Shown here in pieces: positions 21,002 through 62,746 of a stretch of DNA of 64,000 bases. The notes under the pieces were generated by a model, which saw nothing but the letters and a program-made list of their open reading frames with translations, had not been told where the DNA came from and made no database searches. Numbering within the stretch: the first letter of the stretch is position 1; each line of letters opens with the position of its first letter. Source of the stretch: Bacteroidales bacterium (lineage in GTDB: Bacteria; Bacteroidota; Bacteroidia; Bacteroidales; Azobacteroidaceae); assembly GCA_031556375.1 (NCBI GenBank), contig JAVBTA010000003.1:103319-167318 (forward strand). The letters run 5' to 3'. A program made the position numbers and the translations under genes.

Positions 21002-21081
21002 TTTAATGTTTTTTATATCAAAAGGTTATTTTTCGCGATATTTTTTTTTGTGAATTATTATTGTAAATCATTTTTAATCCG

Positions 21082-21089: not shown

Positions 21090-21121
21090 TACCAAAATTT
21101 AAGCACACCAAATTAACATTT

Positions 21122-21529
21122 ATGAAAATAAAAACCATTGTTACCGGAGTTATCGGAGCCGATGTACATGCTGTTGGTAACAAAATTTTAGCTTATGCCC
21201 TGGAAGATGCCGGTTTTAATGTTGTGAATCTGGGAGTTATGGTTTCCCAGGAAGAGTTTATCAACGCCGTTCTGGAAACAAATGCCAGTGCAATTGTGGT
21301 CTCCTCTCTTTACGGACACGGGGAAATCGATTGTAATGGACTGCGTGATAAATGCAATGAAGCCGGTTTAAAAGATATAGTACTTCTTGTCGGAGGAAAT
21401 CTGGTAGTTGGGAAACAAGACTTCGCAGATGTTGAAAAGCGTTTTACAGCTATGGGATTCACCAAAGCATACCCTCCGGGAACCTCATTAGAAACAACAA
21501 TTGAAGACCTGAATAAATTTCTAAGTTAA
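21122..21529 (+). CDS. glmS: Glutamate (methylaspartate) mutase S chain, B12-binding subunit
   Basis: [50 protein letters not shown]...[26 protein letters not shown]...[15 protein letters not shown] matches what I recall of clostridial GlmS/MutS. It has the DxHxxG cobalamin-binding motif (ADVHAVG). Confidence 0.9.
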
Positions 21530-21539
21530 CAAATCCGTT

Positions 21540-22922: not shown

Positions 22923-22949
22923 TAATATAATCAGAAGATTAACAGTAAT

Positions 22950-24410: not shown

Positions 24411-24423
24411 TAAAAAAAATTAT

Positions 24424-38210: not shown

Positions 38211-38270
38211 GTCCCAAAATTAAGAATTATTTCTAATTTTGCATGCCCACAACAATACAACCCTAATTTG

Positions 38271-39575
38271 ATGCTTAGAGTACTGAGACATACCATAATT
38301 CTGATTGTACTTTTATTCGTACAATTGCATAACGTAAAATCTGAAGTTGCATTATATCCGGAAGCAACTATTTTTACTCAAGAAGGTGATTTTTTTCTTC
38401 ATATGATAGAAAAAGGTGAAACTCTTCACCTATTATCAAAAAAATACAATGTAAAAATTGATGATATTCTGGCTGTAAACCCCGGATTATCTGTAAAAAC
38501 TTTTTATTACGGAAAAAAAATACGTATTCCCGGAAAAAATGCAACAATATCAAACGAAGAAAAGACAGAAACAAAACAAAAAACCGAACCGGAAAAAACT
38601 GAAATTACTACCACACCGATTGTAGTGCCGGAAAAAATCGTAGTTTCTGAAAACAATAGTTTTCATAAAACACTGGAATTTAACATTATACGATTCGATA
38701 TCGATTTATATCAATATCTGAATAAACAAATTGCAGAAAAAGAATTCCTATATAATTACAATAAATTCCTGAAGACTTACGGTGAAAAAATTATAGGAAT
38801 AGGAAAATTCGATTCCGATGATTTCTTCAAACGATTCAATGATTTTTTTGCAGAACCTACCTTAACGTCTTTATACGAAGACGTGGAAGATAAATTCAGG
38901 AATACTGAATTTATCAGCGGAGAACTCAATCCGGCATTAGATACTCTGTTCAAAGAATTTCCGGCACTAATCAGACCATCCATATATACTCACGTATCCG
39001 GGTTAAACCAAAGTGTTGTCGTTACTGATGATGTATTGTCCGTATCGCTTGATAAATATATGGGATCGGATTATCCGTTGTATAAGAATTATTTTCACAA
39101 CTACCAATTGCAGAACATGTCTCCGGACCGGATTGTTCCGGATTATTTACTTGGATTTATGCTTTCAAACCTTCCTTTTCAGGGACGGGAGGATGTTTTA
39201 CTCGATAGAATGATTTACGAGGGAAAATTACGATATATACTGGCTCGTCTATTACCATACAGAAAAGTCCGGGAGTTCATGGGTTACAGCGAAGAACAAT
39301 ATAACTGGTGTACGACAAATCAGGTACAGATCTGGAAAAACATTCTTAGAAACGGCCATCTTTATACTCCGGATTATATGACTACTGCAAAATACATCAA
39401 TAATGCACCATATACGGTTACTGTTTCAACCGAATCACCGGGAGGAATTGGAATATGGGTTGGTTTCCAAATCGTTGATGCATATATGAAAAAACATCAG
39501 GAAACTACTCTTTCTCAATTAATGAACATGCAGGACTCACGCCAGCTATTAATCGATTCTAAATATAAACCTTGA
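38271..39575 (+). CDS. LysM-domain secreted protein with a large C-terminal domain of unknown function
   Basis: Signal peptide then one LysM domain (HMIEKGETLHLLSKKYNVKIDDILAVNPGL...KIRIP). Its N-terminal about 50 aa are paralogous to the next gene. Confidence 0.65.
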   Translation: MLRVLRHTIILIVLLFVQLHNVKSEVALYPEATIFTQEGDFFLHMIEKGETLHLLSKKYNVKIDDILAVNPGLSVKTFYYGKKIRIPGKNATISNEEKTETKQKTEPEKTEITTTPIVVPEKIVVSENNSFHKTLEFNIIRFDIDLYQYLNKQIAEKEFLYNYNKFLKTYGEKIIGIGKFDSDDFFKRFNDFFAEPTLTSLYEDVEDKFRNTEFISGELNPALDTLFKEFPALIRPSIYTHVSGLNQSVVVTDDVLSVSLDKYMGSDYPLYKNYFHNYQLQNMSPDRIVPDYLLGFMLSNLPFQGREDVLLDRMIYEGKLRYILARLLPYRKVREFMGYSEEQYNWCTTNQVQIWKNILRNGHLYTPDYMTTAKYINNAPYTVTVSTESPGGIGIWVGFQIVDAYMKKHQETTLSQLMNMQDSRQLLIDSKYKP

Positions 39576-49763: not shown

Positions 49764-50566
49764 TTTGGCAAATTAAACACAGGTACCAATCCATCCAATT
49801 GTTCGTCGGTCATACCTTGAGGATCAAAGCCTGCCTGACGGGCCGTAAGATAGATTTGGGCTGATTTTGATAATGTATCTATTGCATCAAAAGTTTCGAT
49901 GATATCATCACCAACACAAAGAACCCCATGTTTTTCCCACAGGACAACATCGTGTCTGTCGAGTTGTTTAATAGTCGCTGCTGCAAGTTCCAGTGTTCCT
50001 GGGATTTCGTAAGGAATAATACCGATTCCACGCGGAACAACAATACGGGATTCCGGTATCATCGACCAAAGGATACGTGCCATAACACCCTCTTCCAGGA
50101 ATTTTTTGCCATGTGATAACGCGATCAGGTCTGTAGGATGTGTGTGTAACACCACTTTAATTCCTTTTCCGATCTCACGCATATAGTTATGCATTGAAAG
50201 ATGGGATGGTAATTCACTTGTAGGAGCTACCGGATTTTCGGCTATAATATCATAAGCATCTCCATTATCATTGATACGAATGATCGACCCGTGTTCAAAA
50301 GGGGATTTCGCTACATACCTCATTCTTTTTCCGGTTCCTGTAACATAGAAATAATTACCACGTAAATGATCGAATTTAAGAGGTAACGGTATGCTTGGAA
50401 CTAATCCCGGCAACGATTTGATTTCATTTGTCACATATTCCGTCAGATTAACGGATATATTTCCACCGTTACGTTCCGCCCATCCTTTTTCCCAAAGGTA
50501 ACCTGCTACTTCGGCTATTTTACCGATTTCATGCATTAATGCAGCATTTGCTCTGATACTATTCAT
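49760..50566 (-). CDS. Class II aldolase/adducin-family protein (rhamnulose-1-phosphate aldolase-like)
   Basis: ERNGGNISV, PTSELPSHL, VVLHTHPTDLIALS and GIGIIPYEIPGT parallel RhaD motifs. 268 aa. A 4-nt overlap with ccsBA. Confidence 0.65.
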   Translation of the reverse strand: MNSIRANAALMHEIGKIAEVAGYLWEKGWAERNGGNISVNLTEYVTNEIKSLPGLVPSIPLPLKFDHLRGNYFYVTGTGKRMRYVAKSPFEHGSIIRINDNGDAYDIIAENPVAPTSELPSHLSMHNYMREIGKGIKVVLHTHPTDLIALSHGKKFLEEGVMARILWSMIPESRIVVPRGIGIIPYEIPGTLELAAATIKQLDRHDVVLWEKHGVLCVGDDIIETFDAIDTLSKSAQIYLTARQAGFDPQGMTDEQLDGLVPVFNLPN

Positions 50567-50662
50567 TATAAATTATAAATTACGAATTATGATGCAAAGT
50601 TAATAAATATATACCTAATATAGGGGTATAATGCCGTACAAAGTAATGTAAAGTTGTACAAC

Positions 50663-53600
50663 TTAATCCTCTATAACTACACGAAATCCTACATTATAAA
50701 CCTTTTGCCAGGGTAAATATGCTTTTCTGACATAAGCAGCCGATGCTTTAGGATGTTCAATCCAGGAACCTCCCCTTACCACCTTTTCTTCTGTCGTTGC
50801 AGTTTTTTTGTCGCTCAACGGATAAGGAAGATAATCCGAACGGGTCCATTCTGCAACGTTTCCGTGGATGTCATAGATTCCCCATACATTCGGTTTGTAG
50901 CTACCCGGTTTTGCTACAAGCATATTGCCATCATCCACGCTTTCTTCCTTTGGATGCCATGTATAATACTTATACCAGCGGTTTTTCTCTCCCATTGGCT
51001 GAGGATCGACCCCTGATACTGCCATTTTATTCATTTGCTTATCAGCCATATTTTCAAAAGCGGCAAAATTATCATTGAAACTTCCATACCAGAATGGAGC
51101 ATCATTACCGGCTCTACAAGCCCACTCCCATTGTTGTTCGGTTGGTAAAGTCACTTTAAGACCTGTTTTTTCACCGAGTTTTTTACAATAATCCATTGCT
51201 TCCTGCCAGCTGACACGTATTACGGGTTGTTCCGGTTTATTCGCAGGATAACCCTCATTTACATGGTCTTTCCACTGTTGATCAAAGAATTTGCTGTCAT
51301 GTTGTGGAAAAAATACACGGAACTGTTCATTTGTAACCTCCATCTCAGCTATCCAGAACGATTTTTTCACTTCAGCTGCAAATGCAGGAGAATAATCGGA
51401 TGGTTTGTTGTTAGTGCCCATAATAAATTTTCCGGCAGGAACTTTCACAAATTTCATACTAATTCCAGGAGCAATTTCTATCATTTTAGATGTTTCTCCT
51501 GCTTTTGCCAACATAGAATATGCTTCCTGATTATCAAAGGGATAACCTTTCACTTTGACATCTTTATAATTTACCTCTTTTTTAACCGGTTTAACCTGAG
51601 TAGGTTTAGGTTGTTTACTCAAATAACCGGCATAATTCCGTATTTCACCTTTCCAGTCAACACCAGCTTCGTTGGCATACTTATCCGTCAGTTCAATGCG
51701 CCTTTGGATCTGATCACAATTATTATATTCCTCCGCACGCATAGTACTATGATAAGGAGCATTGAAATCGATCCAGTTATAAAGTGTTTTCCACTCTTTT
51801 TCAGTCAATTCCACTCCATGGTGACCTTTTTTCAACATAGAGATCAGAGGACTGGTAGAAACGTGGTATTCATAAGGATATAATACTTTCATACCAGCTT
51901 CAGGTCCCTGACGGTGAACATACGGATGCAAATCGAGATAACTTTTACTGTAGGCCAATTTATTCGGCACCTCTTCATCAATACGACCACCTCTGTAATC
52001 ACGCTTGAGAGAACCATTGTGACAAGCCACACAAGCCCTGTCTAAAATAGGCTGTATCTCTAATTCGAAAGTAAAAGGACGTACTCCCCCTTCCGGAATC
52101 GTTAAGTTTTTTGCAGGTTTCAAGGAAGCCATTGCCCGCTTAGGCTTAGGTATCTGATTCTGATCTTCGTGGCAGCCCACACAGGAAACTACTTCACCAG
52201 GCATGCCGGTCAACCAGCTTCTCATCCACTGGATAGCAGCTCCGTCCTTATCCAAGGGTTGAAGTGAAACCGGAGTATTAGCCGGGATATTAAACATCAC
52301 AGAACCATCATCTTCAACAGGTACCACCCCCAAAAGACGTTTGATGTCCCATCCGCTTTGAATACCCTGAGCCACGTGATCCGATTGAGAACGGTTGTAT
52401 GCATATTCATACGCAAATACACGTAAAGATTTCACAGTTCCTTTCGGTACATTCGGCAAACCTTCTCCTTCGTAAATATCCTGAATGAAAACGGTAGCTT
52501 CTTTTTTACTTTCATTTATCTTTGAAGGAATTACCGGAGGTGTCTGACGTTTAATCAATGGAATACCGTGAATATATCCGGCACCTTCTTCCAATACAAT
52601 TGGAGTGATATTATCGTAAATATCAACAAGATACAATCCCCATAAGCTATTCTCGTTCAACTTTGCTGTTACAAGAAAATATTTATCACTGATCGGATAA
52701 GGTTTGATAAATTGAGGATATACACCATTAACCAATTCATCCTTAACCAATGGAATGATCGGACGTTTACTGAATGGAATCTCCTGCAACATACCTTTTT
52801 CCTCTTTCCTGCTTTTTGCAGGATCAAAGGTCATCAGACGACCACTGCGAGCCACTCCATGATGACCGGAAATAATTCCGACAAACTGAGTTGTACCATT
52901 GGGTAATGGTTGAACATCAAAAGTACTGTTTGGAAAGACAGAACCACTACCATAAAGTGAGCGTTGTTCCGTACCGTCGGGATTCATGTGCATGACCATA
53001 CGCGAAAAATAGTGTGTCAAGTCGGTATATTCCCAACGAACATACATCAGACGACCGTTATTCATTACCGTAGGATGCCAGTTTGCATCCTGATCGAATG
53101 TCAAACGTCTGATTTTACCGGTTTTAGGATCGTAATTAATCATGTTTCCAACAGCATCGCTACCATTCACACAAGGCACAGCCTGATAACCTATATTTGA
53201 AACAGCAATAACCTTATTATCAGGGAGATATGTTCCATCAAAAAATTCCAGGTCTTTTTCTGTCGTTGTGATCATCTGTTTGAAATTTTTTCCGTCGATT
53301 CCGACTTCATATACATTCCAGAGATTATTCTCGTTGATCATTGAAAACATGACGCGATCTCCGTTCCAATGTAACTTCAAATCCGGCACAGACGATGTAT
53401 TTGTAGGCTTGAATATAGTTCTGTACTTGATATCTCCACGCAGGTTATTCATCTCCATGATTTCAGCATTGAATCCTTTTCTGGCAGCAGAAGACTGATT
53501 TGACCAGTTATTCGGCTGTGTACCAAGAGAATGTGCGCTATTCTTGCGGGCATTAACTCCGATAGTATATTTACTAACCAATAGTCTGTCCATATCCAAA

Positions 53601-54277
53601 CCCGGATTAGACAAAAGGATATCACGTTTTAATTTCAGGGCTTTCTCTGCCGAAGCAATCGCCGCCGGATCATTCGAATAAATACCGTCAAATCCTTTAT
53701 TAATCAATAATTTAAGTTCTTTTAACAGGGAAAGAGCCTGAACCAGATTAAAAGACGGACTGGATTTCATATCATTTATTGCGGCTTCGATAGAGGGCAC
53801 ATTAAGCCATTCTAACTGTTCGTCGAGCCTATTGATATTAGAAGCAACTATAAATAAATCCAGTAATCCGGTGGCCCGTGCTTCAGGATTGCTCAGCTTC
53901 ATTTGTTCTTTTGCCTTCGATTGAATATATGAGGGTTTTCGGATATATTTACAAATATCTTCAACCATAGCGTATTCAATGGAATCTCCTATAGTTGTAA
54001 AAAATATCTTCCGATCCTGAGGTTCCAGATAGGTCATTGAGAAGCCTGTTTCCAGTGGAAATTGCTTGTACAGGGCCTCTATTTCAGGATTAACGTTCAA
54101 TGAATCGAGAGGTATATTCTCCTTCTTTACTTTATCCATCACGGACTTCTTTGTAGTTATGACAGCTTCCGTCCAACTTACCGGTGTGCAATTTAACGAA
54201 GCTTTCTTACTTCCCTTCTGTGCAAAAACAGAAATAGTGAAGCAAAAACAGATCATAATAATCAGATTTTTCTTCAT
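50663..54277 (-). CDS. Secreted 1204-aa protein: TolB-like beta-propeller + di-haem c-type cytochrome region (HzsA-like architecture) + C-terminal FGE-sulfatase (SUMF1-like) domain
   Basis: Signal peptide MKKNLIIMICFCFTISVFAQ. Beta-propeller-like repeats. Two CxxCH motifs, SCVGCHEDQ and ACVACHNGS, about 45 aa apart. The C-terminal approximately 300 aa read ...WGIYDIHGNVAEWT...RGGSW..., typical of the FGE-sulfatase/GldJ-K fold. Confidence 0.65.
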   Translation of the reverse strand: MKKNLIIMICFCFTISVFAQKGSKKASLNCTPVSWTEAVITTKKSVMDKVKKENIPLDSLNVNPEIEALYKQFPLETGFSMTYLEPQDRKIFFTTIGDSIEYAMVEDICKYIRKPSYIQSKAKEQMKLSNPEARATGLLDLFIVASNINRLDEQLEWLNVPSIEAAINDMKSSPSFNLVQALSLLKELKLLINKGFDGIYSNDPAAIASAEKALKLKRDILLSNPGLDMDRLLVSKYTIGVNARKNSAHSLGTQPNNWSNQSSAARKGFNAEIMEMNNLRGDIKYRTIFKPTNTSSVPDLKLHWNGDRVMFSMINENNLWNVYEVGIDGKNFKQMITTTEKDLEFFDGTYLPDNKVIAVSNIGYQAVPCVNGSDAVGNMINYDPKTGKIRRLTFDQDANWHPTVMNNGRLMYVRWEYTDLTHYFSRMVMHMNPDGTEQRSLYGSGSVFPNSTFDVQPLPNGTTQFVGIISGHHGVARSGRLMTFDPAKSRKEEKGMLQEIPFSKRPIIPLVKDELVNGVYPQFIKPYPISDKYFLVTAKLNENSLWGLYLVDIYDNITPIVLEEGAGYIHGIPLIKRQTPPVIPSKINESKKEATVFIQDIYEGEGLPNVPKGTVKSLRVFAYEYAYNRSQSDHVAQGIQSGWDIKRLLGVVPVEDDGSVMFNIPANTPVSLQPLDKDGAAIQWMRSWLTGMPGEVVSCVGCHEDQNQIPKPKRAMASLKPAKNLTIPEGGVRPFTFELEIQPILDRACVACHNGSLKRDYRGGRIDEEVPNKLAYSKSYLDLHPYVHRQGPEAGMKVLYPYEYHVSTSPLISMLKKGHHGVELTEKEWKTLYNWIDFNAPYHSTMRAEEYNNCDQIQRRIELTDKYANEAGVDWKGEIRNYAGYLSKQPKPTQVKPVKKEVNYKDVKVKGYPFDNQEAYSMLAKAGETSKMIEIAPGISMKFVKVPAGKFIMGTNNKPSDYSPAFAAEVKKSFWIAEMEVTNEQFRVFFPQHDSKFFDQQWKDHVNEGYPANKPEQPVIRVSWQEAMDYCKKLGEKTGLKVTLPTEQQWEWACRAGNDAPFWYGSFNDNFAAFENMADKQMNKMAVSGVDPQPMGEKNRWYKYYTWHPKEESVDDGNMLVAKPGSYKPNVWGIYDIHGNVAEWTRSDYLPYPLSDKKTATTEEKVVRGGSWIEHPKASAAYVRKAYLPWQKVYNVGFRVVIED

Positions 54278-54291
54278 GGTATATTATACTA

Positions 54292-55200
54292 TTATTGTTT
54301 ATTCTTGTATTCAGATGATTTTTTCAAGTCTTTATTTTTAACAGGAAATACACAGGATATCCTTCCAATACCGTTTCCTTCCGACAGTTGCCACATTAAT
54401 TTATTGTCCTGTGTAATTTCAATTAAAGCCGGTTGATTGCCATCCTCCCCTTTCGCATGACCGTTCCAGTTGCAAATCAACAAGTTATTATTATCCAATT
54501 CGACTATTTGTGCAACAAAATTCAAGCGAATCCCTTCAATATCTTTTTGTCCGATTTTTCGGATTAATTGGCCTGTCTTCCGTTCCACTTCCAATGCCGA
54601 ATGGGCATCTCCGCATGCAATCAACAGATTTCCGTTTTTTAGTTCAACGATTGAAAACGGATTTCCTTCAACCTTAAAGCGCATCACTTCTTCTCCCTCA
54701 GGACTTATTTCGACGACCTCTCCTTTTGCCATGACAGGAAATAGATAATTCCCGTTTTTAGCTTTGATTAATTGTCGCATTTGTCCGTGCAGACTTTCAA
54801 CTCCAGTTTCAAAAGAGAGTTTTTTCACTTCTTTCCCTTTCTTGTTCAACTCAATTATTTTGGCCGGAGAACCACTATGAGCCAGTAGAAACCCTCCGTT
54901 TGGCATTTGAGTGGCAGCATAAAGCTCCCCTTTTTCCTCCAGCTTATAATCCCAGATTACTTCTTTCTTCGCATTAATAAGTTTTGCACCTTTCTTATAC
55001 GAAATCAACAAATTTCCGTCTTTAGTCAATGTAATGTTTTCACAATCATCACTTTTTTCCAAATCGTATGTCCACTCGATCTGCTTCGTATTTTTATCAA
55101 TTAAAACCACCTGTTGCCATCCACAACCACTGATAAAGATCTTATCCTGAGCAAGAAGGCTACAGGGTAAAAGAAGAAAAAGAAAAGCCAAATACTTCAT
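54292..55200 (-). CDS. Secreted beta-propeller-like protein of unknown function
   Basis: Signal peptide MKYLAFLFLLLPCSLLAQ. Repeated G-x-L-L patterns (NGNLLI, DGNLLIS, NNLLIC) suggest propeller blades. Confidence 0.45.
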   Translation of the reverse strand: MKYLAFLFLLLPCSLLAQDKIFISGCGWQQVVLIDKNTKQIEWTYDLEKSDDCENITLTKDGNLLISYKKGAKLINAKKEVIWDYKLEEKGELYAATQMPNGGFLLAHSGSPAKIIELNKKGKEVKKLSFETGVESLHGQMRQLIKAKNGNYLFPVMAKGEVVEISPEGEEVMRFKVEGNPFSIVELKNGNLLIACGDAHSALEVERKTGQLIRKIGQKDIEGIRLNFVAQIVELDNNNLLICNWNGHAKGEDGNQPALIEITQDNKLMWQLSEGNGIGRISCVFPVKNKDLKKSSEYKNKQ

Positions 55201-55276
55201 AAAATAACGTTTTATAAATTGAGTATGGAGACCTACCCCCCTACAAAGGGGGATGCCCATTCTCAATTCTCAATTC

Positions 55277-56149
55277 TCAATTCGATAAGTCCTCAAATAA
55301 CTGATAAGCCTCATTAACCGAGTAATTCTTATGAACAACTGCGCTAACGGCCTGTATCATAGCAATCGGATTTTCAGACTGGAATACATTACGTCCCATA
55401 TCCACACCGGCAGCACCATCATTGATTGCATTATAGCATAGTTCCAGAGCTTCTTTTTCCGGAAGTTTTTTACCACCTGCAATTACAATAGGTACGGGGC
55501 ATGCTGCAACAACGTTTTCAAATCCGTCGCAATAATAGGTTTTTACGATATTCGCACCATTTTCGGCACAAACACGGGAAGCCATACCAAAATAACGGGC
55601 ATCACGAGCCATATCTTTACCAACAGCAGTAACTCCCATTACAGGAATATTATATTTTGAACCCAAATCTGCCATTTTATAGAGATTCGCAACCGTTTTT
55701 GCTTCCATAGCCGGATCTCCGATAGCGAGCATAATAGCCATAGCAGATACATTCATCCTGATTGCATCCTCAATATCGATTACAACATTATCATTCAATT
55801 CCGTAAGGATAGTTGTTCCGGCATCCGATCGCAAACAAATAGGTTTATTGATATTTGCAGGAACTGATGATTGCAAAATACCGCGGGCACACATCAAGCA
55901 GTCCGCATACTCCATTAACGGGGTGATATTCAAGTCAATCCGTTCCAAACCTGAAGTAGGTCCCATGATGAACCCATGATCAAAAGCCAGCATCACTGTC
56001 CGTCCGCTTTGTGGGTTGAAAATACGTGTCAGCCTGTCTTTCATTCCCCAGGGAAGATTATCAGCACCTTTTACATGGAATGCCCGGTTTTTCACTTCAA
56101 CACCGATTCCAAATTTTTTACCTTCTCTGATATCGTCTAAATCTGCCAT
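55277..56149 (-). CDS. lsrF: LsrF-type class I aldolase/thiolase (DhnA/FbaB-DeoC superfamily; 3-hydroxy-5-phosphonooxypentane-2,4-dione thiolase-like)
   Basis: MADLDDIREGKKFG...TVMLAFDHGF..GPT.GLERIDLNI...GANIVKTYY...CPVPIVIAGGKKLPEKEALE...DMGRNVFQS is nearly colinear with enterobacterial LsrF as I recall it, including the Schiff-base lysine context IVKTYY. 290 aa. Confidence 0.75.
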   Translation of the reverse strand: MADLDDIREGKKFGIGVEVKNRAFHVKGADNLPWGMKDRLTRIFNPQSGRTVMLAFDHGFIMGPTSGLERIDLNITPLMEYADCLMCARGILQSSVPANINKPICLRSDAGTTILTELNDNVVIDIEDAIRMNVSAMAIMLAIGDPAMEAKTVANLYKMADLGSKYNIPVMGVTAVGKDMARDARYFGMASRVCAENGANIVKTYYCDGFENVVAACPVPIVIAGGKKLPEKEALELCYNAINDGAAGVDMGRNVFQSENPIAMIQAVSAVVHKNYSVNEAYQLFEDLSN

Positions 56150-56191
56150 TTTTTTTGTACATTTATATTTTTAGAAAGTCCCTTAAATTAC

Positions 56192-56800
56192 TTACTCTGC
56201 AAATGCCTGGAACATACAAGCCCATGATGAAGCTCCTGAATCAGCGTAACCTATGGATTTTTCTCCGTAATTGCGGGCTCGCCCGAAGTTTGCTTTCATT
56301 TCGATAGTAGCTTCTGCCCCTGTTTTAGCGGCTTTAGCAGCTTCTGTAAAGAGTTGGGTAATATCATCCGAATCACAAGCCAACATTGCATCTACAGCAG
56401 GAATCAGGGCATCCATCATTGTTTTGTCGCCTTTTTGAGCCTGAGTTTGTTTACATACACCCTCCAGACCTCCCTTGAAGAGTTGTTTGACCTGTTCCGC
56501 ATTCATTTCTGTTCCTTCAACATGGTCGCTCATTCCGAGAAGAAAGCCACCAATTAAAGTACTGGTAGAACCACTGGTTTGCATCATCACATTGAATCCC
56601 ATGTCATTAAGCATAGTCTTCAGTTCCGTACCTTTCTTTGCAGCTTCCACAACAGAAGTCAGAGCCTGAACGATGGCTGTTCCATGGTCTCCGTCTCCAA
56701 TTACAGCGTCTAATTGAGAGAATTCATCAGCACGTTCGGTTACACGAACCAAAGCACGTTCCCACATGCTGATGAAGTCTTGTATAGTTAATTTTTGCAT
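56192..56800 (-). CDS. dhaL: Dihydroxyacetone kinase-type ADP-binding subunit
   Basis: AVIGDGDHGTAIVQALTSV is the DhaL signature DGDxG. 202 aa. Confidence 0.8.
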   Translation of the reverse strand: MQKLTIQDFISMWERALVRVTERADEFSQLDAVIGDGDHGTAIVQALTSVVEAAKKGTELKTMLNDMGFNVMMQTSGSTSTLIGGFLLGMSDHVEGTEMNAEQVKQLFKGGLEGVCKQTQAQKGDKTMMDALIPAVDAMLACDSDDITQLFTEAAKAAKTGAEATIEMKANFGRARNYGEKSIGYADSGASSWACMFQAFAE

Positions 56801-56804
56801 ATTA

Positions 56805-57845
56805 TTAAATCGTAGTCCAGTAAGGAGCGTTTGCTCTGCGTTTTAGAAGTTCAACATGATCGGCATCCAGTTTACCCAGCATCATTTGGAATCCTGAAAG
56901 TTCTTGAACTGTAAGGATTTCCATTAATTTTGCATCAGCAACTTCAATACCGGCATCCATTAGTATCTGGTGAGCTTTACGGAAAACAATACTCATTTCC
57001 ATATGAGTTGTAGCGCCGCTTCCATTGATGTAAAGCATTACTTTATCTCCTTTTTCAGGCTGGATCTTCTTGCACAACTGGTTAATCATGATTTCAGCCG
57101 TTTTATCCGCAGATTCTAACATCTGACGGCCATTGCTTCCGCCTTCACCGTGTTGTCCCATACCGATTTCCATTTCACCTGAAGGCAGGCTGGAGATAAC
57201 CGCACCATTCTGAGGATGAGTACATTGTCCCATAGCCACGGCCAAAGTAGCGATTTGTTTGTTGAAACGTTCACCGATTTCGCAGATCTCATCAAGGCTT
57301 TTTCCTTCTTCAGCGGCAGCACCTACTATTTTAGCTAGAGGTACACAACCGGCCAAACCCCGTCTGTCTTTATCCGGAGTATCCAAACCGGAACTGATAT
57401 CGTCGTGAGTCAGAATCGATTTTACTTTGATACCTGCCTTTTCTGCGAGCATTGTTGCCATATTGGCACTCATCACGTCTCCGGAATGATTCAAAACGAT
57501 TAACAGGATACCGGCATCACGTTTGAACATTTGCAAAGCCTGGAAAAGACGTTGAGCACCTGGAGCAGCAAAGATATCGCCGACAACAGAGCAATCCAGC
57601 ATACCTTCTCCGACAAATCCACTCAATGCAGGTTCGTGTCCTGAACCTCCTAAAGTAATGATTGCCACTTTCTTTTCGTCCTTCGGTTGAGCTCTTACCA
57701 CAATATTTTCGCCGCCTAAAGCAACTTTATCATTATAAGCCAACACATATCCTTCCAGTAATTCTTTTGTTATATTTTCGGGTTCATTGATGAACTTGGT
57801 CATAATCTTACTCATGATATTATTTTTTAAAGGTTTATTTATCAA
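56805..57845 (-). CDS. dhaK: Dihydroxyacetone kinase-type substrate-binding subunit
   Basis: ITLGGSGHEPALSGFVGEGMLDCSVVGDIFAAP carries the DhaK GGGSGHEP signature and the substrate His. 346 aa. Confidence 0.85.
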   Translation of the reverse strand: MINKPLKNNIMSKIMTKFINEPENITKELLEGYVLAYNDKVALGGENIVVRAQPKDEKKVAIITLGGSGHEPALSGFVGEGMLDCSVVGDIFAAPGAQRLFQALQMFKRDAGILLIVLNHSGDVMSANMATMLAEKAGIKVKSILTHDDISSGLDTPDKDRRGLAGCVPLAKIVGAAAEEGKSLDEICEIGERFNKQIATLAVAMGQCTHPQNGAVISSLPSGEMEIGMGQHGEGGSNGRQMLESADKTAEIMINQLCKKIQPEKGDKVMLYINGSGATTHMEMSIVFRKAHQILMDAGIEVADAKLMEILTVQELSGFQMMLGKLDADHVELLKRRANAPYWTTI

Positions 57846-58152
57846 AACACATTAACTCGATTGGGATACCTTCTTCTACGATAAAAGCGATAGTCAGGTT
57901 TTCTCCACCCGGACATGGCTCTACAATTACGTTTGCACCCTTTAAAGCTTCTTCCATATTTGGCACTTCGTATGCAATATGAGGAACTTTCTGAATAATT
58001 TCAGGCAACCAGCTTCCTTCTTCAAAACGAAGGAACTCAATTCTGTTCGGACTTTTTGAATAATCGGTCAAATGAACTTTCATTCCATCTACAAAAAACT
58101 CTCCTTGTTGACTTTCGCAAGTCGGAATTCCGTAATGATTAATTTTTCTCAT
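57835..58152 (-). CDS. Small hypothetical protein (possibly VOC/glyoxalase-like half-domain)
   Basis: 105 aa. Its stop overlaps the dhaK start by 11 nt, implying translational coupling. No clear motif. Confidence 0.4.
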   Translation of the reverse strand: MRKINHYGIPTCESQQGEFFVDGMKVHLTDYSKSPNRIEFLRFEEGSWLPEIIQKVPHIAYEVPNMEEALKGANVIVEPCPGGENLTIAFIVEEGIPIELMCFDK

Positions 58153-58179
58153 GGTAATTCAGTATTTCAGGTTTATAAA

Positions 58180-58872
58180 TTATTTTCTCATTCCTGCCAA
58201 AGCGTCTGTAAATACAGCACCCGGATTAGTAAAACGCAAACCATTACCATCGTGATAATTTGCATATTCAGTAACTATTGCACCTTCAGGGCCCGCAAAC
58301 AAGAAGTGTGGAGATTCTGCTTCGGCCAAATGAATTACTTCATCAACCATTTGTTTCTGGAAATGAGAAACAGTGATAAAATCTTTCTGACTTGCCGGTA
58401 AAACAGGAGGATTAGGAGTTGGGTCTCCGATTGAATAGTTGTAAGTCCAACCGTGACGAACCTGCCAGCTTTCAAATTTAGGAGGATGGTTTGTTGCTAC
58501 GTGACGGTGTTCCAGGATCATTTGTCCGGGTAATAAGTAGATTTCATGTCCGAAATAAGCATGAGCTTCATCGTTTACCCAGAATAAACCTGCCATTCCT
58601 ACATTTTCGAAGTCTCCCAGTTCAAAATCGGTGATCCACAGATTATTTTTTACAAACTCGGAATATGGAACTCCATAATAATCAAGCATATCCAGATATG
58701 CATCCAGAGCGACTTTAGGATCCAATTTTCCATCTTTGTAAAAATCCGCATTTGTGTACTTTTTCTTGTACGGTTCTTTTGTTTGCATAACTTCTTCTTT
58801 TTTAGTTTCACCGGAACAAGCTACTAAAGCAACCCCGATTATTAAGATCATTAAATTTTTAATTGTTTTCAT
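58180..58872 (-). CDS. Cupin-fold lipoprotein (possible sugar isomerase)
   Basis: Lipobox LVACSG. Cupin-like His cluster LPGQMILEHRHVATNHPPKFE. 230 aa. Confidence 0.45.
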   Translation of the reverse strand: MKTIKNLMILIIGVALVACSGETKKEEVMQTKEPYKKKYTNADFYKDGKLDPKVALDAYLDMLDYYGVPYSEFVKNNLWITDFELGDFENVGMAGLFWVNDEAHAYFGHEIYLLPGQMILEHRHVATNHPPKFESWQVRHGWTYNYSIGDPTPNPPVLPASQKDFITVSHFQKQMVDEVIHLAEAESPHFLFAGPEGAIVTEYANYHDGNGLRFTNPGAVFTDALAGMRK

Positions 58873-58886
58873 ACAATAATTATTAT

Positions 58887-60044
58887 TTATTTCAAGTTTA
58901 TTTTATTTTCTATCAATGCAATTCCCTCTATTTCAACCAATAATTCATCCCGGCATACATCAGCCAGGACATAACAAACCGGAACTTTCGCATATTTTAC
59001 CTTTACTACATTACGTGCCGCTTCCAGATATTTACAGCCTTTCAGATATACCCGTAAAGAGCAGATCCGGCCATATCCTTTCAACCCGGACTTAGATTCA
59101 CTTAAGGTTTGACCGGATATCAAATGCTCTACATTTTCCAATGTAATCCTGGTCTGTTCTTCTATTCCAACGTCTGCAAGGCTATTTTCACCACGGATTG
59201 CAGCCGTTCCTGAGACATAAATCAATCCTGATCCGTTTTCTAAAACTAATTTGGCTCTCTCAAATTTAGGAGTCGTTTTCTGCTTCAATTCTTTATCTTC
59301 CTCCCCGATCAACACTTTTTCCGAATAACCGAATGCAGGCACCTGTAAGCTATTATCAAGCGGAATTATCCGGTTTTCCGGAGTTGTAAAACAAAATGCT
59401 TCCAGATCGATCATTATTCCTCCGAAAGAAGTACCGATGCCTGTTGCCGCAGGAAAACCATTGTTCCAGATTGCAGAAGTATAGAAATGAGTTCTCGCAT
59501 CATTAAAATCCTGATAATGCTGATGGGTTCCTTCTATTTTTGTGATTTGCTCTATATAATTCCATTGACGGACAATAGACGAAACCGGCATGTTTTCACA
59601 AATAAAAATGTCTTTTAATTTAGAAAAAACCTGATCTGACTGTGTCCTGATCGAGTTTTTTAATGAATCTGCCAGAACTCCTCCGACAAACAGTTTTTTT
59701 GATTTTCCGTTTTGGAGAATAATATATGGTAAATCGTTTTGTTTCTTATAATGAACTTCTGTTCCGGCCTCCCACTCTGCCTCAAAAACTTCGAGGATTA
59801 AAGTATCCTGTTCCAGAGGAGGTTGAGCCACATAACTAAAAACCGGAGCTTTTTCTTCAAATTTACGTTCTACAAACCGAGCAATTAACGTTAAATGCTT
59901 CTTGTACTCTTCGTTATCCGTTGGATTTCCGAAAAATACAAGTCTTATAATTGTTCCTGTTTCAAAACCGGAATTAAATAAATAATCCAGTTGTTCTTCG
60001 ATTGAATTTCCTTTACTTTGTATATAATTACACTTAATAAACAT
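58887..60044 (-). CDS. Two-domain protein with a C-terminal RidA/YjgF-like domain (possibly FkbO/Hyg5-like chorismatase family)
   Basis: The C-terminal 120 aa read LIYVSGTAAIRGENSLADVGIEEQTRITLENVEHLIS...CRDELLVEIEGIAL, which is the RidA fold pattern. The N-terminal approximately 250 aa are unassigned. Confidence 0.5.
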   Translation of the reverse strand: MFIKCNYIQSKGNSIEEQLDYLFNSGFETGTIIRLVFFGNPTDNEEYKKHLTLIARFVERKFEEKAPVFSYVAQPPLEQDTLILEVFEAEWEAGTEVHYKKQNDLPYIILQNGKSKKLFVGGVLADSLKNSIRTQSDQVFSKLKDIFICENMPVSSIVRQWNYIEQITKIEGTHQHYQDFNDARTHFYTSAIWNNGFPAATGIGTSFGGIMIDLEAFCFTTPENRIIPLDNSLQVPAFGYSEKVLIGEEDKELKQKTTPKFERAKLVLENGSGLIYVSGTAAIRGENSLADVGIEEQTRITLENVEHLISGQTLSESKSGLKGYGRICSLRVYLKGCKYLEAARNVVKVKYAKVPVCYVLADVCRDELLVEIEGIALIENKINLK

Positions 60045-60046
60045 TA

Positions 60047-61843
60047 CTACAGAGAGTTAACATATTCCACCAATGCTTCGATTTCCTTTTTGGAAACCTT
60101 CTTATCGATCCCATGTTTATGTACCGTAAAGACATCCTCCATGGTTGCAGCTCTTCCATCGAAAAGATAAGGAGCTGTACGCCAGGATTCTATCAACGTA
60201 GGGGTATCCCAACCAGTCTCAAATTCGATATCTTGTCCAATACGGTGCAGTTTCATATCTGTAAAATAAACTCCGGAATGACATTCACCACAACTGAGCT
60301 TATCAAATATCTTTTTCCCTTGTTCTGCTTTTTCAGATAATTTTCCATTAACAAGATACGGGCTTGGAACCGGACGAAGCGATCTCAGATAGTCATCTAC
60401 ACAAACGGCCTTTTCTTCCGGGATCTCGGCAAACTGAATCAGTGCAAATCCCTTTCTTACAGCCAGATCTGCAGATTCACGAATTCCGGAAATCATAGAA
60501 GGGGGAGTTACATGACTGTAAAGCATACTTTTACAGTTTTTCGGATTACCTATTCCATCGTTCATCAAATCCCAGTTCATCCCATCGGTTCTGGCATCCG
60601 GGTGACAACCGATACAGGATTGCCAACCCTGGAAACAGTATGCAGCATCATGGAAATATTTCTCTCCTTTATTTGCCGACGATTCAATCCGGTTTACGAC
60701 TAAAGGACGATTTTCCACCTTATTGTCAGCTAAATTGAGAATATTTAATGTATCTGAAAAATAAGTCGGGATATATACTTTATCATTTGAAACGACAAAG
60801 TTTCGCGGACCGTTTCCTATCAATGAGATACGTTGTTTTAGTCCGTATAAAAAGCGTAAATCATAATCCAGAGAAGATTTATCAGGATATGCGATAAATC
60901 TTTCAATCATCTTCGGATAATCGACAATGCTGATTTCATGGGTGCCGGAATGTGAAATAACAAGCTTATCCGGCGTACAGTGAATTCCCCAGATCCCGGC
61001 AGCGCCTCGTTCCGGATCATCCAACAGTATCGAGCCCAGATTTTCAAATTTTGCAGCATCTACTATTGTAATCGCACTGGTATTCATCCAGCCTTGTTGC
61101 AATTGGTTGGTAGGCACCTGGAAACGTCCCAGATTGTGAGTAATGAAAACGTACTTTCCATCGGGACTCAAACACATTCCTCGTAACGCATTACTTCCGT
61201 TTGCCAGTTGAATATCTTTTATTTTGGTGAAATTTTTCAGATCGATGACCGATACACAAGACGCGACTGTGTCAATATCCGCACGTTGTTCAGGTAAATA
61301 GTTCGAAACAAATAAATACCGGTTATCCTGGCTAAGTACCGCGCATGCGGGCTCTCGTAAGACTTTTACGGTATTAACAACCTCCGCTTTTGACAGATCG
61401 ATCTCACTGACAGTTGTCTGAAACTGATTCATGACATACAATGTCTTTCCATCGGAAGAAAGCACGGGAGAAGTAGCTCCGGAACCGGTTTCCAGAACTT
61501 TTTCCACAACTCCGCTTTCAAGATTCAGAAAATGTACCTCACCTATTGCTTCAAAAGTCGTAACATAAGCATATTCACCCGAAGTAACAACTCCGGTTGG
61601 CGCTTGAGGAAATGTCCAGGTCTTCACCGGTTTATCAAAATCGACGTTATATAATTCTAATGTTTTATTTCCTCTATTTGTTATCAGGAATTGATGGTTG
61701 TCTGTTTCTTTAATATCTGTGGGATAATGGGGATATGAAGCTTTATCAGCTTGATCACCAACTGAAGTAGAACTTAGAGATAAGGTTGTCAGACTTACCG
61801 CAACCAGCAGTATTAAATAAGGTATTAATGAATTTTTATACAT
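60047..61843 (-). CDS. Secreted YVTN-type beta-propeller protein with a C-terminal di-haem cytochrome c domain
   Basis: Signal/TM N-terminus. Repeated ~40-residue blades (DGKTLYVMNQ, DNRYLFVSNY, DGKYVFITHN). Two CxxCH motifs, SCIGCHPD and SCGECHSG, about 100 aa apart. Confidence 0.65.
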   Translation of the reverse strand: MYKNSLIPYLILLVAVSLTTLSLSSTSVGDQADKASYPHYPTDIKETDNHQFLITNRGNKTLELYNVDFDKPVKTWTFPQAPTGVVTSGEYAYVTTFEAIGEVHFLNLESGVVEKVLETGSGATSPVLSSDGKTLYVMNQFQTTVSEIDLSKAEVVNTVKVLREPACAVLSQDNRYLFVSNYLPEQRADIDTVASCVSVIDLKNFTKIKDIQLANGSNALRGMCLSPDGKYVFITHNLGRFQVPTNQLQQGWMNTSAITIVDAAKFENLGSILLDDPERGAAGIWGIHCTPDKLVISHSGTHEISIVDYPKMIERFIAYPDKSSLDYDLRFLYGLKQRISLIGNGPRNFVVSNDKVYIPTYFSDTLNILNLADNKVENRPLVVNRIESSANKGEKYFHDAAYCFQGWQSCIGCHPDARTDGMNWDLMNDGIGNPKNCKSMLYSHVTPPSMISGIRESADLAVRKGFALIQFAEIPEEKAVCVDDYLRSLRPVPSPYLVNGKLSEKAEQGKKIFDKLSCGECHSGVYFTDMKLHRIGQDIEFETGWDTPTLIESWRTAPYLFDGRAATMEDVFTVHKHGIDKKVSKKEIEALVEYVNSL

Positions 61844-61856
61844 CAGAATTTGTTTT

Positions 61857-62660
61857 TCATGTATTGCTATAACCTAACTCAAAAGAAATATTCTGAGTAA
61901 TATTCTGTATTTCATTCGCAAACATCAGGATTGTTTCTCCCGGCAACCGGTCTTTCGGACCAGAGATCCAGATAGATCCGCAAGGGGCATTACTATAATT
62001 GAATATAGGCACTCCTATGCATACAACTCCATTCAATTCTTCTTCCATATCGACAGCATAACCCAATTTGCGGACTTTATCCAATTCCAGCAGATATGCT
62101 TCTTCTGTTGAGATTGTATTTCGGTTGTATATCTGATAATTCATTTTTGATAAATAGTCCTTCCTGGATTCTTCCGGCATAAACGCCATCATGGCTTTTC
62201 CCGGAGCCGAACAATGCAAATCGAATGATTTTCCCGGAGAGAGGACAAAGCAAAACGGATGTGTTCCTAAAACCTGTTCGATAAAAAGACCCTTATCCGT
62301 ACCCATAACACCGAAACAAACTGTTTCTTTCACAATATCACGCAGTTCACGCATTTTAGGCAGTACAACCTCTAACAGGCTGTGTTCCTGTATAGATTGA
62401 AAGCCTAAGATAAGCATTTTTCTTGAGAGTTTATATTTTTTTGACGAATTATTGTAGAGTAAGTAACCTAATCTGACTAATGTATTAAGGATCCGGTAAG
62501 TTGTAGTCTGCGAAATATCGGCTTCATTTCTGATTTCCTGCAAAGTCATTCCCCTATTAGCATTGGCTAACAGTTCAAGTATTAATATTCCCTTTTCAAG
62601 ATTGGGGACTTTGTAAGAATCGTCTAATTCTTCAGGTGTGTTTTTCATATTTGAAATCAT
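61857..62660 (-). CDS. IclR-family transcriptional regulator
   Basis: N-terminal wHTH (GMTLQEIRNEADISQTTTYRILNTLVRLGYL) plus an IclR effector domain. Start chosen at an internal Met. It heads the same-strand array at its upstream end. Confidence 0.75.
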   Translation of the reverse strand: MISNMKNTPEELDDSYKVPNLEKGILILELLANANRGMTLQEIRNEADISQTTTYRILNTLVRLGYLLYNNSSKKYKLSRKMLILGFQSIQEHSLLEVVLPKMRELRDIVKETVCFGVMGTDKGLFIEQVLGTHPFCFVLSPGKSFDLHCSAPGKAMMAFMPEESRKDYLSKMNYQIYNRNTISTEEAYLLELDKVRKLGYAVDMEEELNGVVCIGVPIFNYSNAPCGSIWISGPKDRLPGETILMFANEIQNITQNISFELGYSNT

Positions 62661-62746
62661 TTTCCAGATTCGAAACAAAAATAAGCATTTCAAATGAATG
62701 TTTTAAATTCAATTAGTTAAATTTAGTTAAATATCAATCAACAAGC

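Follow-up and report, generated by a model that had tools for sequence, protein, structure and literature searches.

In Escherichia coli and Salmonella, the terminal enzyme of the Lsr system is LsrF, with a kinase and a small isomerase encoded alongside, and in E. coli it converts P-HPD to DHAP and acetyl-CoA. The kinase, LsrK, is of the FGGY type, the isomerase, LsrG, has the ABM fold, and the system also comprises the LsrACDB transporter and LsrR. Roles have been assigned to the catalytic and phosphate-binding residues of LsrF (PMC2728841), and Bradley et al. (2018) found a Bacteroidetes LsrF homologue to be associated with gut colonisation, with AI-2 degradation being proposed (PMC6084841). 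An lsr-type locus of Lacticaseibacillus, with lsrK and an ABC transporter, has no annotated lsrG and includes a small cupin. LsrF is also encountered outside the Lsr system: in the Alphaproteobacteria Sagittula (p3) and Shinella (p1), LsrF proteins 69–72% identical to that of E. coli are found in non-AI-2 sugar clusters together with a class II aldolase-type protein and with cytoplasmic or membrane-bound partners (an FGGY kinase other than LsrK, a GlpD-like FAD dehydrogenase, an SDR and an ABC transporter), so that homology alone does not imply a function related to AI-2. We describe here a further setting for LsrF, of which we found no account in the searchable literature.

A four-gene block within a conserved operon

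The window, a stretch of 64,000 nucleotides from a Bacteroidales bacterium, encodes five proteins on the minus strand between positions 55277 and 58872, where they had originally been predicted: a cupin lipoprotein (58180–58872), a 105-residue protein of the VOC fold that we call VOC105 (57835–58152), the kinase subunits DhaK (56805–57815) and DhaL (56192–56800), and an LsrF-family class I aldolase/thiolase (55277–56149). VOC105, DhaK, DhaL and LsrF form a block inside a conserved, single-strand operon of 10–12 genes, which in the window runs from an IclR-family regulator (61857–62693, minus strand; Pfam IclR_C and HTH_IclR) to a gene for CcsBA (47361–49763, minus strand).

Related loci were gathered through VOC105, taken as the operon marker, whose relatives are present in 281 species belonging to the Bacteroidota and Verrucomicrobiota, among them isolates of gut Bacteroides and Parabacteroides and metagenome-derived Akkermansia genomes; the habitats include gut, termite gut and sediment. 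In this sample the block is uninterrupted in 72 of 80 loci, the other eight ending inside it, mostly at a contig end, and all four are present, always on one strand, in each of the 44 loci with complete 10-kb flanks (full loci). This linkage, which spans two gene orders and two phyla, indicates that the pairing of LsrF with DhaKL is not due to chance. The full loci also contain the cupin (43/44), homologues of the alpha (42/44) and beta-gamma (41/44) parts of hydrazine synthase (HZS), a chorismatase-like protein (39/44), a Mal s 1-like propeller (33/44) and CcsBA (27/44), with a class II aldolase in only two. The full locus L085, from Alistipes, has the four-gene block with no HZS-like gene within 10 kb. 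Neither in the window nor among the families conserved within 10 kb in the 80 loci did we find LsrK or any other FGGY kinase, LsrG, LsrACDB or LsrR, and no transporter is among the families conserved between the loci. The original prediction of an LsrF-type protein paired with DhaK/DhaL, in place of LsrK and LsrG, is thereby confirmed, and the Lsr-type transporter that it proposed to look for is missing from the window and from these families. The Sagittula and Shinella clusters resemble the present operon in combining LsrF with a kinase other than LsrK and with a class II aldolase-type protein, but they lack DhaKL, VOC105, the cupin and the haem proteins.

The cytoplasmic enzymes

The LsrF protein of the window (290 residues) scores 462 bits against the NCBIfam equivalog NF006081 (cutoff 297), matches the E. 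coli LsrF structures 3gkf and 4p2v (E-value 1e-107), and is 57–60% identical to LsrF from E. coli and Enterobacter, whereas the Lacticaseibacillus protein is 52% identical to the E. coli one. Residues D57, H58, K203 (the lysine of the IVKTYY motif), Y205, G226, G227, D251, M252, G253 and R254 are all retained in the window protein and in 71–72 homologues of its cluster, which bears out the expectation that the catalytic lysine and the phosphate-binding residues are conserved. Asp251 is specific to LsrF and is replaced by Ala in the nearest non-LsrF aldolases. Plain aldolases are more distant (MJ0400, E-value 2e-33; FBP aldolases, about 1e-12), and ADH_synth and BagB/FevI are also hit, ADH synthase scoring 171–178 bits. 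The protein is a true member of the LsrF family.

DhaK has a Dak1 domain (E-value 2e-95) and matches the structures of Lactococcus lactis (3ct4, 9e-58) and E. coli (1oi2, 1e-50) DhaK, and DhaL (202 residues) has a Dak2 domain (1e-39). As in the two-subunit enzymes of E. coli and L. lactis and the single-chain, ATP-dependent Dak of Citrobacter freundii, the Dak1 and Dak2 parts are accompanied by the hemiaminal-forming His218, by His56 and Asp109, which with His218 are invariant in 79 DhaK homologues, and by the Asp triad for Mg/ADP, the D-x3-G-D-G-D-H-G motif (DhaL residues 31–40) being present in all 66 homologues tallied. In contrast to those enzymes, the KNY sequence that precedes Asp109 reads LNH in each of the 79 DhaK homologues, with Leu in place of E. 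coli K104 throughout, and the locus has no DhaM. Since DhaM is missing, and since to our knowledge Bacteroidota generally lack a sugar PTS, ATP is the likely phosphoryl donor. The partner genes suggest a DhaKL substrate larger than dihydroxyacetone. The probable start of DhaK is the ATG at 57815, which locus L001 (94% identical) has in common with the window and which leaves a 19-nt spacer after the VOC105 stop codon; the open reading frame extends to a TTG at 57845, and the translational coupling proposed for the 105-residue protein depends on that TTG.

VOC105 has no match in Pfam or NCBIfam and no similarity to LsrG. Its AlphaFold2 model (pLDDT 95.7) is closest in Foldseek to 2qh0, 3hdp, 3oa4, 6bu2 and 6qh4 (query TM-scores 0.63–0.73), which assigns the modelled protein to the metal-type VOC fold, as a minimal relative of glyoxalase I and methylmalonyl-CoA epimerase. 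H6, E39, H58, E93 and E99 are invariant among the homologues, and the tetrad H6/E39/H58/E99, with the fold, corresponds to the chemistry of enediolate isomerases. The original suggestion that this protein is a candidate isomerase is therefore plausible, and VOC105 could stand in for the cytoplasmic LsrG despite the different fold. There is no room for a signal peptide in VOC105, DhaK or LsrF.

Exported proteins and neighbouring genes

The cupin (230 residues) belongs to the D-lyxose/D-mannose ketol-isomerase family, sharing fold, metal ligands and about 30% identity with the Thermofilum enzyme (7NZO) and Bacillus subtilis YdaE (2Y0O), at target-normalised TM-scores of about 0.86–0.89. Profile searches gave E-values of 9e-22 (7nzo) and 3e-17 (2y0o), Foldseek comparison with 7nzp, 7nzo and 7nzq gave target TM-scores of 0.84–0.89 and rmsd values of 1.7–2.1 Å, and H109, H122, H124, E134, H189 and H207 are invariant. 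The members of this family known to us are cytoplasmic, but the window protein carries a signal peptide and a lipobox, and among 67 homologues 64 have a hydrophobic N-terminus and 61 a lipobox-like Cys. The cupin is thus exported rather than cytoplasmic and cannot act on a cytoplasmic phospho-intermediate, so that it cannot substitute for LsrG as had been proposed.

Homologues of all three subunits of anammox hydrazine synthase (Kuenenia HZS, 5C2V), namely the alpha middle domain, the beta propeller and the gamma dihaem unit, are encoded on either side of the block, a context that had been missed in the original prediction. The exported propeller and dihaem protein (60047–61843, minus strand, 598 residues) matches 5c2v_B (E-value 7e-19) and 5c2v_C (3e-16) and has two CxxCH motifs in all 65 homologues, but at 104 bits it is far below the hydrazine_BC cutoff of 1250. 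The exported alpha-like protein (50663–54277, minus strand, 1204 residues) combines the HZS alpha middle domain (Pfam HZS_alpha, 1e-37) and two haem c sites (CxxCH at residues 699 and 749, with two such motifs in all 63 homologues) with a C-terminal FGE-like domain (FGE-sulfatase, 2e-41) that is absent from Kuenenia HZS, and often with an NPCBM carbohydrate-binding module (33 of 69 homologues); 60 of 67 homologues bearing RGGSW have no Cys in the region of the FGE catalytic pair. Unlike anammox organisms, the hosts are fermentative members of the Bacteroidota and Verrucomicrobiota from gut and sediment, and the neighbouring genes are for sugar-type enzymes rather than for anammox.

The other minus-strand genes encode a cytoplasmic chorismatase-like protein (58887–60044, 385 residues) with an FkbO/Hyg5 N-terminal domain (PF21168) and a RidA/YjgF domain (PF01042), matching 5ag3 (1e-23) and FkbO 4bps (3e-10); an exported Mal s 1-like propeller (54292–55266, likely start at 55200; PF22701, 1e-55); and an accessory, RhaD-like class II aldolase (49760–50566; NF002963, 303 bits, cutoff 170), whose gene overlaps by 4 nt that of CcsBA, a ResB/CcsA fusion for cytochrome c maturation identified by homology to genes with PF05140 and PF01578 in loci L002 and L003. 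Beyond the window, this aldolase type is confined to L001 and L052, which are close relatives, and to L081, where it is on the opposite strand, and a different, unrelated class II aldolase occupies the same place in Akkermansia. In Bacteroides a hybrid two-component regulator replaces IclR, and a DAHP synthase I-like gene, restricted to this genus, is found in 18 loci. In our reading, the IclR or hybrid two-component regulators and the NPCBM modules point to a catabolic, carbohydrate-sensing locus.

Possible routes through the operon

AI-2 quenching without LsrK or LsrB, in which DPD, or its 1-hydroxy-2-keto isomer made by the exported isomerase, would enter the cell and be phosphorylated by DhaKL, followed by the LsrG step on VOC105 (P-DPD to P-HPD) and release of DHAP and acetyl-CoA by LsrF, appears unlikely. 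DhaK enzymes require a hydroxymethyl group beside or near a carbonyl, which both DPD and its ketol isomer provide, the LsrF protein is of the AI-2 enzyme's family with every key residue kept, a cytoplasmic enediolate-type isomerase is always encoded in the same block, and LsrG seems replaceable, as the Lacticaseibacillus locus has none annotated. The operon is also frequent in dense, AI-2-rich communities, and the Bacteroidetes LsrF homologue linked to gut colonisation (PMC6084841) speaks for the same route. However, the locus contains nothing specific to AI-2 (LsrB, LsrACD, LsrR, LsrK and LsrG being absent), LsrF proteins closer still to the E. coli enzyme are found in clearly non-Lsr clusters, and the presence of NPCBM modules and hybrid two-component regulators favours a carbohydrate as the substrate. 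No known AI-2 route involves dihaem proteins, a chorismatase-like protein or CcsBA, which are tightly linked here, nor would such a route obviously need them. The initial interpretation is thus partly supported: AI-2 is a possible substrate, to which no specific feature points, but the genes do not form an AI-2 unit that stands by itself.

Alternatively, the cupin might act on a small aldose or deoxy-sugar (tetrose/erythrulose, 5-deoxyribose or some other 5- or 6-deoxy sugar) to give the ketose, and DhaKL on the ketose to give its 1-phosphate, with LsrF, and the class II aldolase where present, as a CoA-free, DHAP-releasing aldolase. We consider this quite improbable, even though the cupin is of an aldose–ketose isomerase family, the DhaK-family kinase LerK of Mycobacterium smegmatis forms L-erythrulose 1-phosphate, LsrF is fully equipped as a class I aldolase, and class II aldolases are found in this operon and in Akkermansia. 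LsrF keeps Asp251 and resembles true LsrF more than it does any plain aldolase, the class II aldolase lies outside the core set, cleavage of erythrulose 1-phosphate would free formaldehyde, and the haem proteins are likewise left unaccounted for. Biosynthesis seems very improbable: DHAP made by DhaKL would be condensed by the LsrF-like enzyme, as by its relatives ADH synthase and GriI, and with the chorismatase-like enzyme (and the DAHP synthase-like one in Bacteroides) would yield an aromatic or cyclitol compound, which the periplasmic haem proteins might, for example, use as cofactor or substrate. The core position of the chorismatase homologue, the DAHP synthase I-like genes and the DHAP-type condensing enzymes of the LsrF superfamily agree with such a role, but the protein resembles thiolytic LsrF far more closely than it does ADH synthase, no further shikimate or aminoshikimate genes are present, the DAHP synthase-like gene is confined to one genus, and the regulators are typical of catabolic loci.

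We tentatively favour, at slightly less than an even chance, a role of VOC105, DhaK, DhaL and LsrF as the cytoplasmic end of the operon, a funnel that would convert a small hydroxy-ketone of periplasmic origin to DHAP and an acyl-CoA. The exported part, i.e., the cupin lipoprotein, the two HZS-like dihaem proteins and the propeller, with CcsBA for haem attachment, would presumably act on a carbohydrate-like substrate to produce this compound on the outer side of the inner membrane, although the haem proteins and the chorismatase-like protein could serve a separate purpose and merely share regulation with the funnel. The lack of a conserved transporter that would bring the intermediate across the inner membrane, and the Alistipes locus L085 with its block but no HZS-like gene, count against this reading. 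We infer an order of steps in which the active-site His of DhaK would bind a small, uncharged hydroxy-carbonyl compound, ATP bound to DhaL would phosphorylate the terminal hydroxymethyl group, and metal-dependent VOC105 would shift a proton or carbonyl via an enediolate, as ketol or epimer isomerases do. With the resulting intermediate, probably a C4–C5 hydroxy-diketone, LsrF would form a Schiff base at the carbonyl adjoining CH2-O-P, free DHAP and transfer the acyl remainder to CoA, giving acetyl-CoA if the intermediate is P-HPD. The alphaproteobacterial clusters, in which LsrF is accompanied by a kinase, a GlpD-like dehydrogenase and an SDR, fit LsrF as the step at which keto-sugar phosphates of various origins converge.

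Gene organisation and distribution of the locus

The lsrF gene of the window is part of an uninterrupted train of twelve genes, all on the minus strand (47361-62693), with intergenic gaps of -4 to 96 nt. From the first gene to the last, these encode an IclR regulator, a 598-aa exported beta-propeller and dihaem protein (60047-61843), a 385-aa chorismatase-like protein, a 230-aa lipoprotein (58180-58872), a 105-aa protein that we called VOC105 (57835-58152), DhaK (56805-57815), DhaL (56192-56800), LsrF (55277-56149), a Mal s 1-like propeller, a 1204-aa exported haem protein (50663-54277), a class II aldolase and a ResB/CcsA fusion. The region addressed by the original prediction (55277-58872) corresponds to genes 4 to 8 of this train. 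That prediction described the 105-aa ORF as translationally coupled, a claim that depends on a TTG start of dhaK; with the ATG found also in a locus of 94% identity, the two genes are 19 nt apart. The terminator scan gave no terminators above chance within the twelve-gene train. Between 46.5 and 64 kb, the promoter/terminator scan, which does not cover Bacteroidota promoters, returned fewer matches than in shuffled sequence and none in intergenic positions, and it neither supports nor breaks the reading as a single operon.

A one-genome-per-species scan with the 105-aa family identified relatives in 281 species, and the best 80 loci were analysed. These come from Bacteroides (B. cellulosilyticus, B. 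intestinalis, B. stercorirosoris, B. nordii, B. oleiciplenus, B. timonensis, B. fluxus, B. clarus and B. cutis), Parabacteroides, Tannerellaceae, Dysgonomonadaceae, Rikenellaceae including Alistipes, Prolixibacteraceae, Marinifilaceae and Cytophagales, and, in the Verrucomicrobiota, from Akkermansia genomes assembled from metagenomes and from Opitutales. Two more copies are found on plasmid-deposited records, of P. distasonis and of a marine Aureibacter. Cultured strains carrying the locus are B. cellulosilyticus DSM 14838, B. intestinalis, B. clarus and P. distasonis.

The gene order VOC105-DhaK-DhaL-LsrF is intact in 72 of the 80 loci, and the other eight end within the block, mostly at a contig end. 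Gene counts were made on the 44 loci with full 10-kb flanks, all of which contain each of VOC105, DhaK, DhaL and LsrF, with the cupin lipoprotein present in 43, the 1204-aa haem protein in 42, the 598-aa haem protein in 41, the chorismatase-like protein in 39, the Mal s 1-like propeller in 33 and CcsBA in 27. The counted operon genes are on one strand in 44/44. Two gene orders are observed, one with the cupin before VOC105 (59 loci) and one with a haem protein, with or without CcsBA, inserted between them (16 loci), which indicates that the linkage has outlived rearrangement. The four-gene block is found alone in one full locus only, from Alistipes (L085), flanked there by genes with no relation to it (for UvrC, GH43, an antiporter and a glycosyltransferase). 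In the window, the gene of the RhaD-like class II aldolase overlaps the ccsBA start by 4 nt (49760-49763), and thus this accessory gene sits inside the operon here; most related loci lack it, and its presence in 2 of the 44 full loci rules it out as a core partner.

Elsewhere in the window, the plus strand carries a methylaspartate-route glutamate fermentation operon (21050-25668), headed by a small ORF (21050-21529) and encoding MutL, the glutamate mutase E chain and methylaspartate ammonia-lyase, followed by an AtuA-like gene. Also on the plus strand is the gene of a 1933-aa secreted protein (15133-20934) that combines trypsin-like, PKD, BACON and Ig domains with a C-terminal sorting domain for type IX secretion, near which GldB and a CHU_C-tailed protein are encoded (36918-39575).

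LsrF and its kinase and putative isomerase partners

LsrF scores 462 bits with the curated equivalog model NF006081 (cutoff 297) and aligns over its full length with the crystal structures of E. coli LsrF (E 1e-107). In the characterised enzyme, Lys203 is the Schiff-base lysine and Asp57 the general base, Asp251 is an LsrF-specific catalytic residue that is Ala in the closest other aldolases, and the phosphate site is formed by His58, Gly226/227/253 and Arg254 (PMC2728841). Lys203, Asp57 and Asp251 are kept in the window LsrF and in 71-72 homologues of related loci, and His58, Gly226, Gly227, Gly253 and Arg254 are invariant in the same set, which bears out the expectation that the catalytic Lys and the phosphate-binding residues would be conserved. 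Judged from its sequence, the protein belongs to the LsrF family and may cleave P-HPD, with CoA, to DHAP and acetyl-CoA.

DhaK has a Dak1 domain (E 2e-95) that keeps His56, Asp109 and the hemiaminal substrate-binding His218. DhaL has a Dak2 domain in which the D-x3-G-D-G-D-H-G nucleotide/Mg motif reads DAVIGDGDHG (residues 31-40), with the Asp-triad (Mg/ADP) motif present in 66/66 tallied homologues. With regard to dihydroxyacetone as a possible physiological substrate, both proteins score below the equivalog models (286 vs 406 for dhaK1 and 134.3 vs 138.3 for dha_L). The PTS phosphoryl donor DhaM is found neither in the window operon nor among the families conserved in the 80 related loci, and the pair is presumably of the ATP-dependent DhaKL subtype. 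The KNY sequence that precedes Asp109 in the solved DhaK proteins of E. coli and L. lactis is replaced by LNH in 79/79 cluster homologues, a substitution that may mark a different substrate pocket.

VOC105 gave no Pfam or NCBIfam match. Its AF2 model (pLDDT 95.7) is a minimal VOC domain with the paired beta-alpha-beta-beta-beta fold, and Foldseek matched it to 2qh0, 3oa4 and 6qh4 with probability 1.00 and TMq 0.63-0.73, the nearest structures being glyoxalase I and methylmalonyl-CoA epimerase. H6, E39, H58 and E99, the putative metal ligands, are invariant in the homologues and lie on the expected strands (1, 4, 5 and 8). VOC105 was originally put forward as a candidate for the role of LsrG; the isomerase-type fold is in agreement with such a role, but a relation to LsrG itself is not seen, as LsrG of the Lsr system has an ABM fold and the Enterobacter protein shows no similarity to VOC105 (E 0.69). 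The VOC105 family is separate and has no Pfam model, and with 971 representative clusters at E <= 0.001 it extends far beyond the operon. Its proteins P0361-P0510 include tandem duplications, and distant relatives are fused to GNAT, cupin or SnoaL-like domains, which give no clue to the substrate. Several metagenomic copies (P0198, P0200-P0202, P0207 and P0208) reach 157 aa through an unrelated tail at the C-terminus that bears PF24877, and are probably assembly or gene-call chimeras and not real fusions.

The FGGY kinases, to which LsrK belongs, are absent from the families conserved in the 80 loci and from the 30 window proteins scanned, and LsrG, LsrB and LsrR are likewise absent from the conserved families, in line with the proposal that DhaK/DhaL stand where LsrK and LsrG would be expected. 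The search for a nearby transporter, Lsr-type or other, was run on the 80 related loci and had a negative outcome, with neither LsrACDB nor any other transporter family conserved. The regulator differs as well, being the LsrR repressor in the Lsr system and either IclR or a hybrid two-component system in the loci described here.

A tblastn search with LsrF against plasmid records gave three kinds of context. The first is the canonical lsrRK/lsrACDBFG layout, in Enterobacter, with a Lacticaseibacillus variant in which lsrK, lsrF, an ABC transporter and a small cupin occur but no lsrG is annotated. In the L. paracasei plasmid locus (L090, 1207-9888; the gene table may be incomplete), lsrK, an LsrR-like regulator, the ABC transporter and lsrF are present, and a 118-aa cupin, which may be another non-orthologous isomerase, adjoins lsrK. 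In the second context, in Sagittula (p3; L089, 5752-11081) and Shinella (p1; L091, 9001-18867), LsrF is accompanied by an FGGY kinase that is not LsrK (172 bits vs a cutoff of 528; best match XylB). A GlpD-like FAD dehydrogenase, a sugar ABC transporter and either a class II aldolase or an aldolase/SDR are also encoded in these clusters, which look like an uncharacterised route for sugars or polyols that depends on LsrF, with 1-deoxy-pentuloses as possible substrates. The third is the DhaKL type, as in the window. All key residues are retained in the alphaproteobacterial LsrFs, which share 69-72% identity with the E. coli protein, so sequence alone cannot tell AI-2 processing from other uses. 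LsrF chemistry is thus joined to at least three different kinase/isomerase sets, whatever the substrate, which makes it unsafe to call AI-2 quenching from an lsrF annotation alone.

Exported proteins and other companions of the operon

The 230-aa lipoprotein is a cupin of the D-lyxose/D-mannose isomerase type (profile E 9e-22; TM 0.84-0.89, rmsd about 2 Å) that keeps all metal ligands. Its signal peptide and lipobox are conserved family-wide. The original prediction also considered it as a possible supplier of the LsrG isomerase role. Because the protein is exported, it cannot stand in for LsrG.

Homology to the beta (E 7e-19) and gamma (E 3e-16) subunits of hydrazine synthase (HZS) is seen in the 598-aa protein, whereas the 1204-aa protein combines an HZS-alpha middle domain (E 1e-37) with an FGE-like domain at its C-terminus. 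Two CxxCH motifs are present in every homologue of either protein. The HZS models (alpha, beta, gamma and beta-gamma) gave 59.6-104.5 bits vs cutoffs of 560-1250, and scores so far under the cutoffs characterise the two proteins, at the sequence level, as HZS homologues and not as members. In 60 of the 67 RGGSW-bearing homologues of the 1204-aa protein, the region of the catalytic pair lacks Cys, which makes FGE-type catalysis by the C-terminal domain unlikely. Of 69 homologues of this protein, 33 have an NPCBM carbohydrate-binding module at the N-terminus. Full homologues of the HZS alpha and beta-gamma types, with two haem c sites each, are found in non-anammox Bacteroidota and Verrucomicrobiota (window 50663-54277 and 60047-61843; L001-L088), accompanied by their own CcsBA. 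No proposal for their function in fermentative gut or sediment bacteria was found in the literature.

The 385-aa protein is homologous to the Hyg5/FkbO chorismatases (E 1e-23). The genus Bacteroides has a hybrid two-component system as the regulator and, in addition, a DAHP synthase I-like gene. At the B. cellulosilyticus locus this regulator (L029, 1945-6105) is encoded upstream and has a periplasmic sensor domain. In one Akkermansia sp. MAG (L057, 13233-15805), the locus has a class II aldolase of another kind, and a catalase is encoded between LsrF and the HZS-alpha-like gene; the best matches of this aldolase are 3-oxo-tetronate-4-phosphate decarboxylase and FucA, both sub-threshold, and the catalase hints at the involvement of peroxide.

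Proposed pathway and its significance

In our view, which we hold tentatively and at slightly less than even confidence, the locus encodes a cytoplasmic funnel of four genes, together with exported cupin and haem proteins that make its ketone outside the cytoplasm. From the observed protein identities, residues, export signals and linkage we infer an order of steps, a donor, an intermediate and a role for the haem proteins. Starting from a carbohydrate-like substrate, the cupin isomerase and the haem proteins would yield the ketone outside the cytoplasm, DhaKL would phosphorylate a small uncharged hydroxy-ketone, with ATP as the most probable donor, VOC105 would carry out an isomerisation via an enediolate, and LsrF would release DHAP and an acyl-CoA. 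The chemistry may explain why the sequence of LsrF does not tell AI-2 processing from other uses. P-HPD is CH3-CO-CHOH-CO-CH2OP, and a ketol shift, the step of LsrG, would lead to it from P-DPD. Alternatively, it could be formed by C4 oxidation of 1-deoxy-xylulose 5-phosphate, or by phosphorylation of the free hydroxy-diketone at its HOCH2-CO end, this diketone being presumably of the type accepted by a DhaK-type kinase.

The AI-2 version is a special case of this funnel, and we consider it unlikely: it agrees with the LsrF and VOC components and with the published association of a Bacteroidetes LsrF homologue with gut colonisation (PMC6084841), but it leaves the haem proteins without a role, and the locus has no AI-2-specific component. 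Less probable still is a route in which tetroses or deoxy-pentoses simply pass through isomerase, kinase and aldolase steps, and a biosynthetic function, argued from the chorismatase-like and DAHP-synthase-like genes, appears very improbable. The funnel could also be extended to the whole operon of 10-12 genes as an undescribed periplasm-to-cytoplasm catabolic system, in which the HZS homologues and the exported ketol-isomerase would convert an extracellular pentose-derived compound to a C5 hydroxy-diketone, perhaps AI-2/DPD, which DhaK/DhaL, the VOC isomerase and LsrF would then take to DHAP and acetyl-CoA; we regard this extended version as quite doubtful. The module itself we file as an LsrF pathway whose front end differs, and the surrounding operon may be something new.

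The names lsrF, dhaK and dhaL are already given to these genes by PGAP, and earlier work had pointed out an LsrF homologue in Bacteroidetes, with a statistical study linking it to gut colonisation (PMC6084841). In the literature on LsrF, DhaK and HZS homologues in Bacteroidetes we found no description of the pairing with DhaKL, of a VOC protein as partner, of the exported isomerase or of a connection with HZS homologues, and no mechanism for AI-2 handling by Bacteroidota. We know of no mechanism by which this dominant gut phylum handles the interspecies signal. The locus provides a concrete, genetically testable candidate in cultured gut strains, and places full homologues of the anammox hydrazine synthase subunits in fermentative gut and sediment bacteria. 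If the extended version is true, gut Bacteroides, Parabacteroides and Akkermansia would have a means of consuming AI-2 without LsrK or LsrB, and the hydrazine synthase protein family would gain a function outside anammox.
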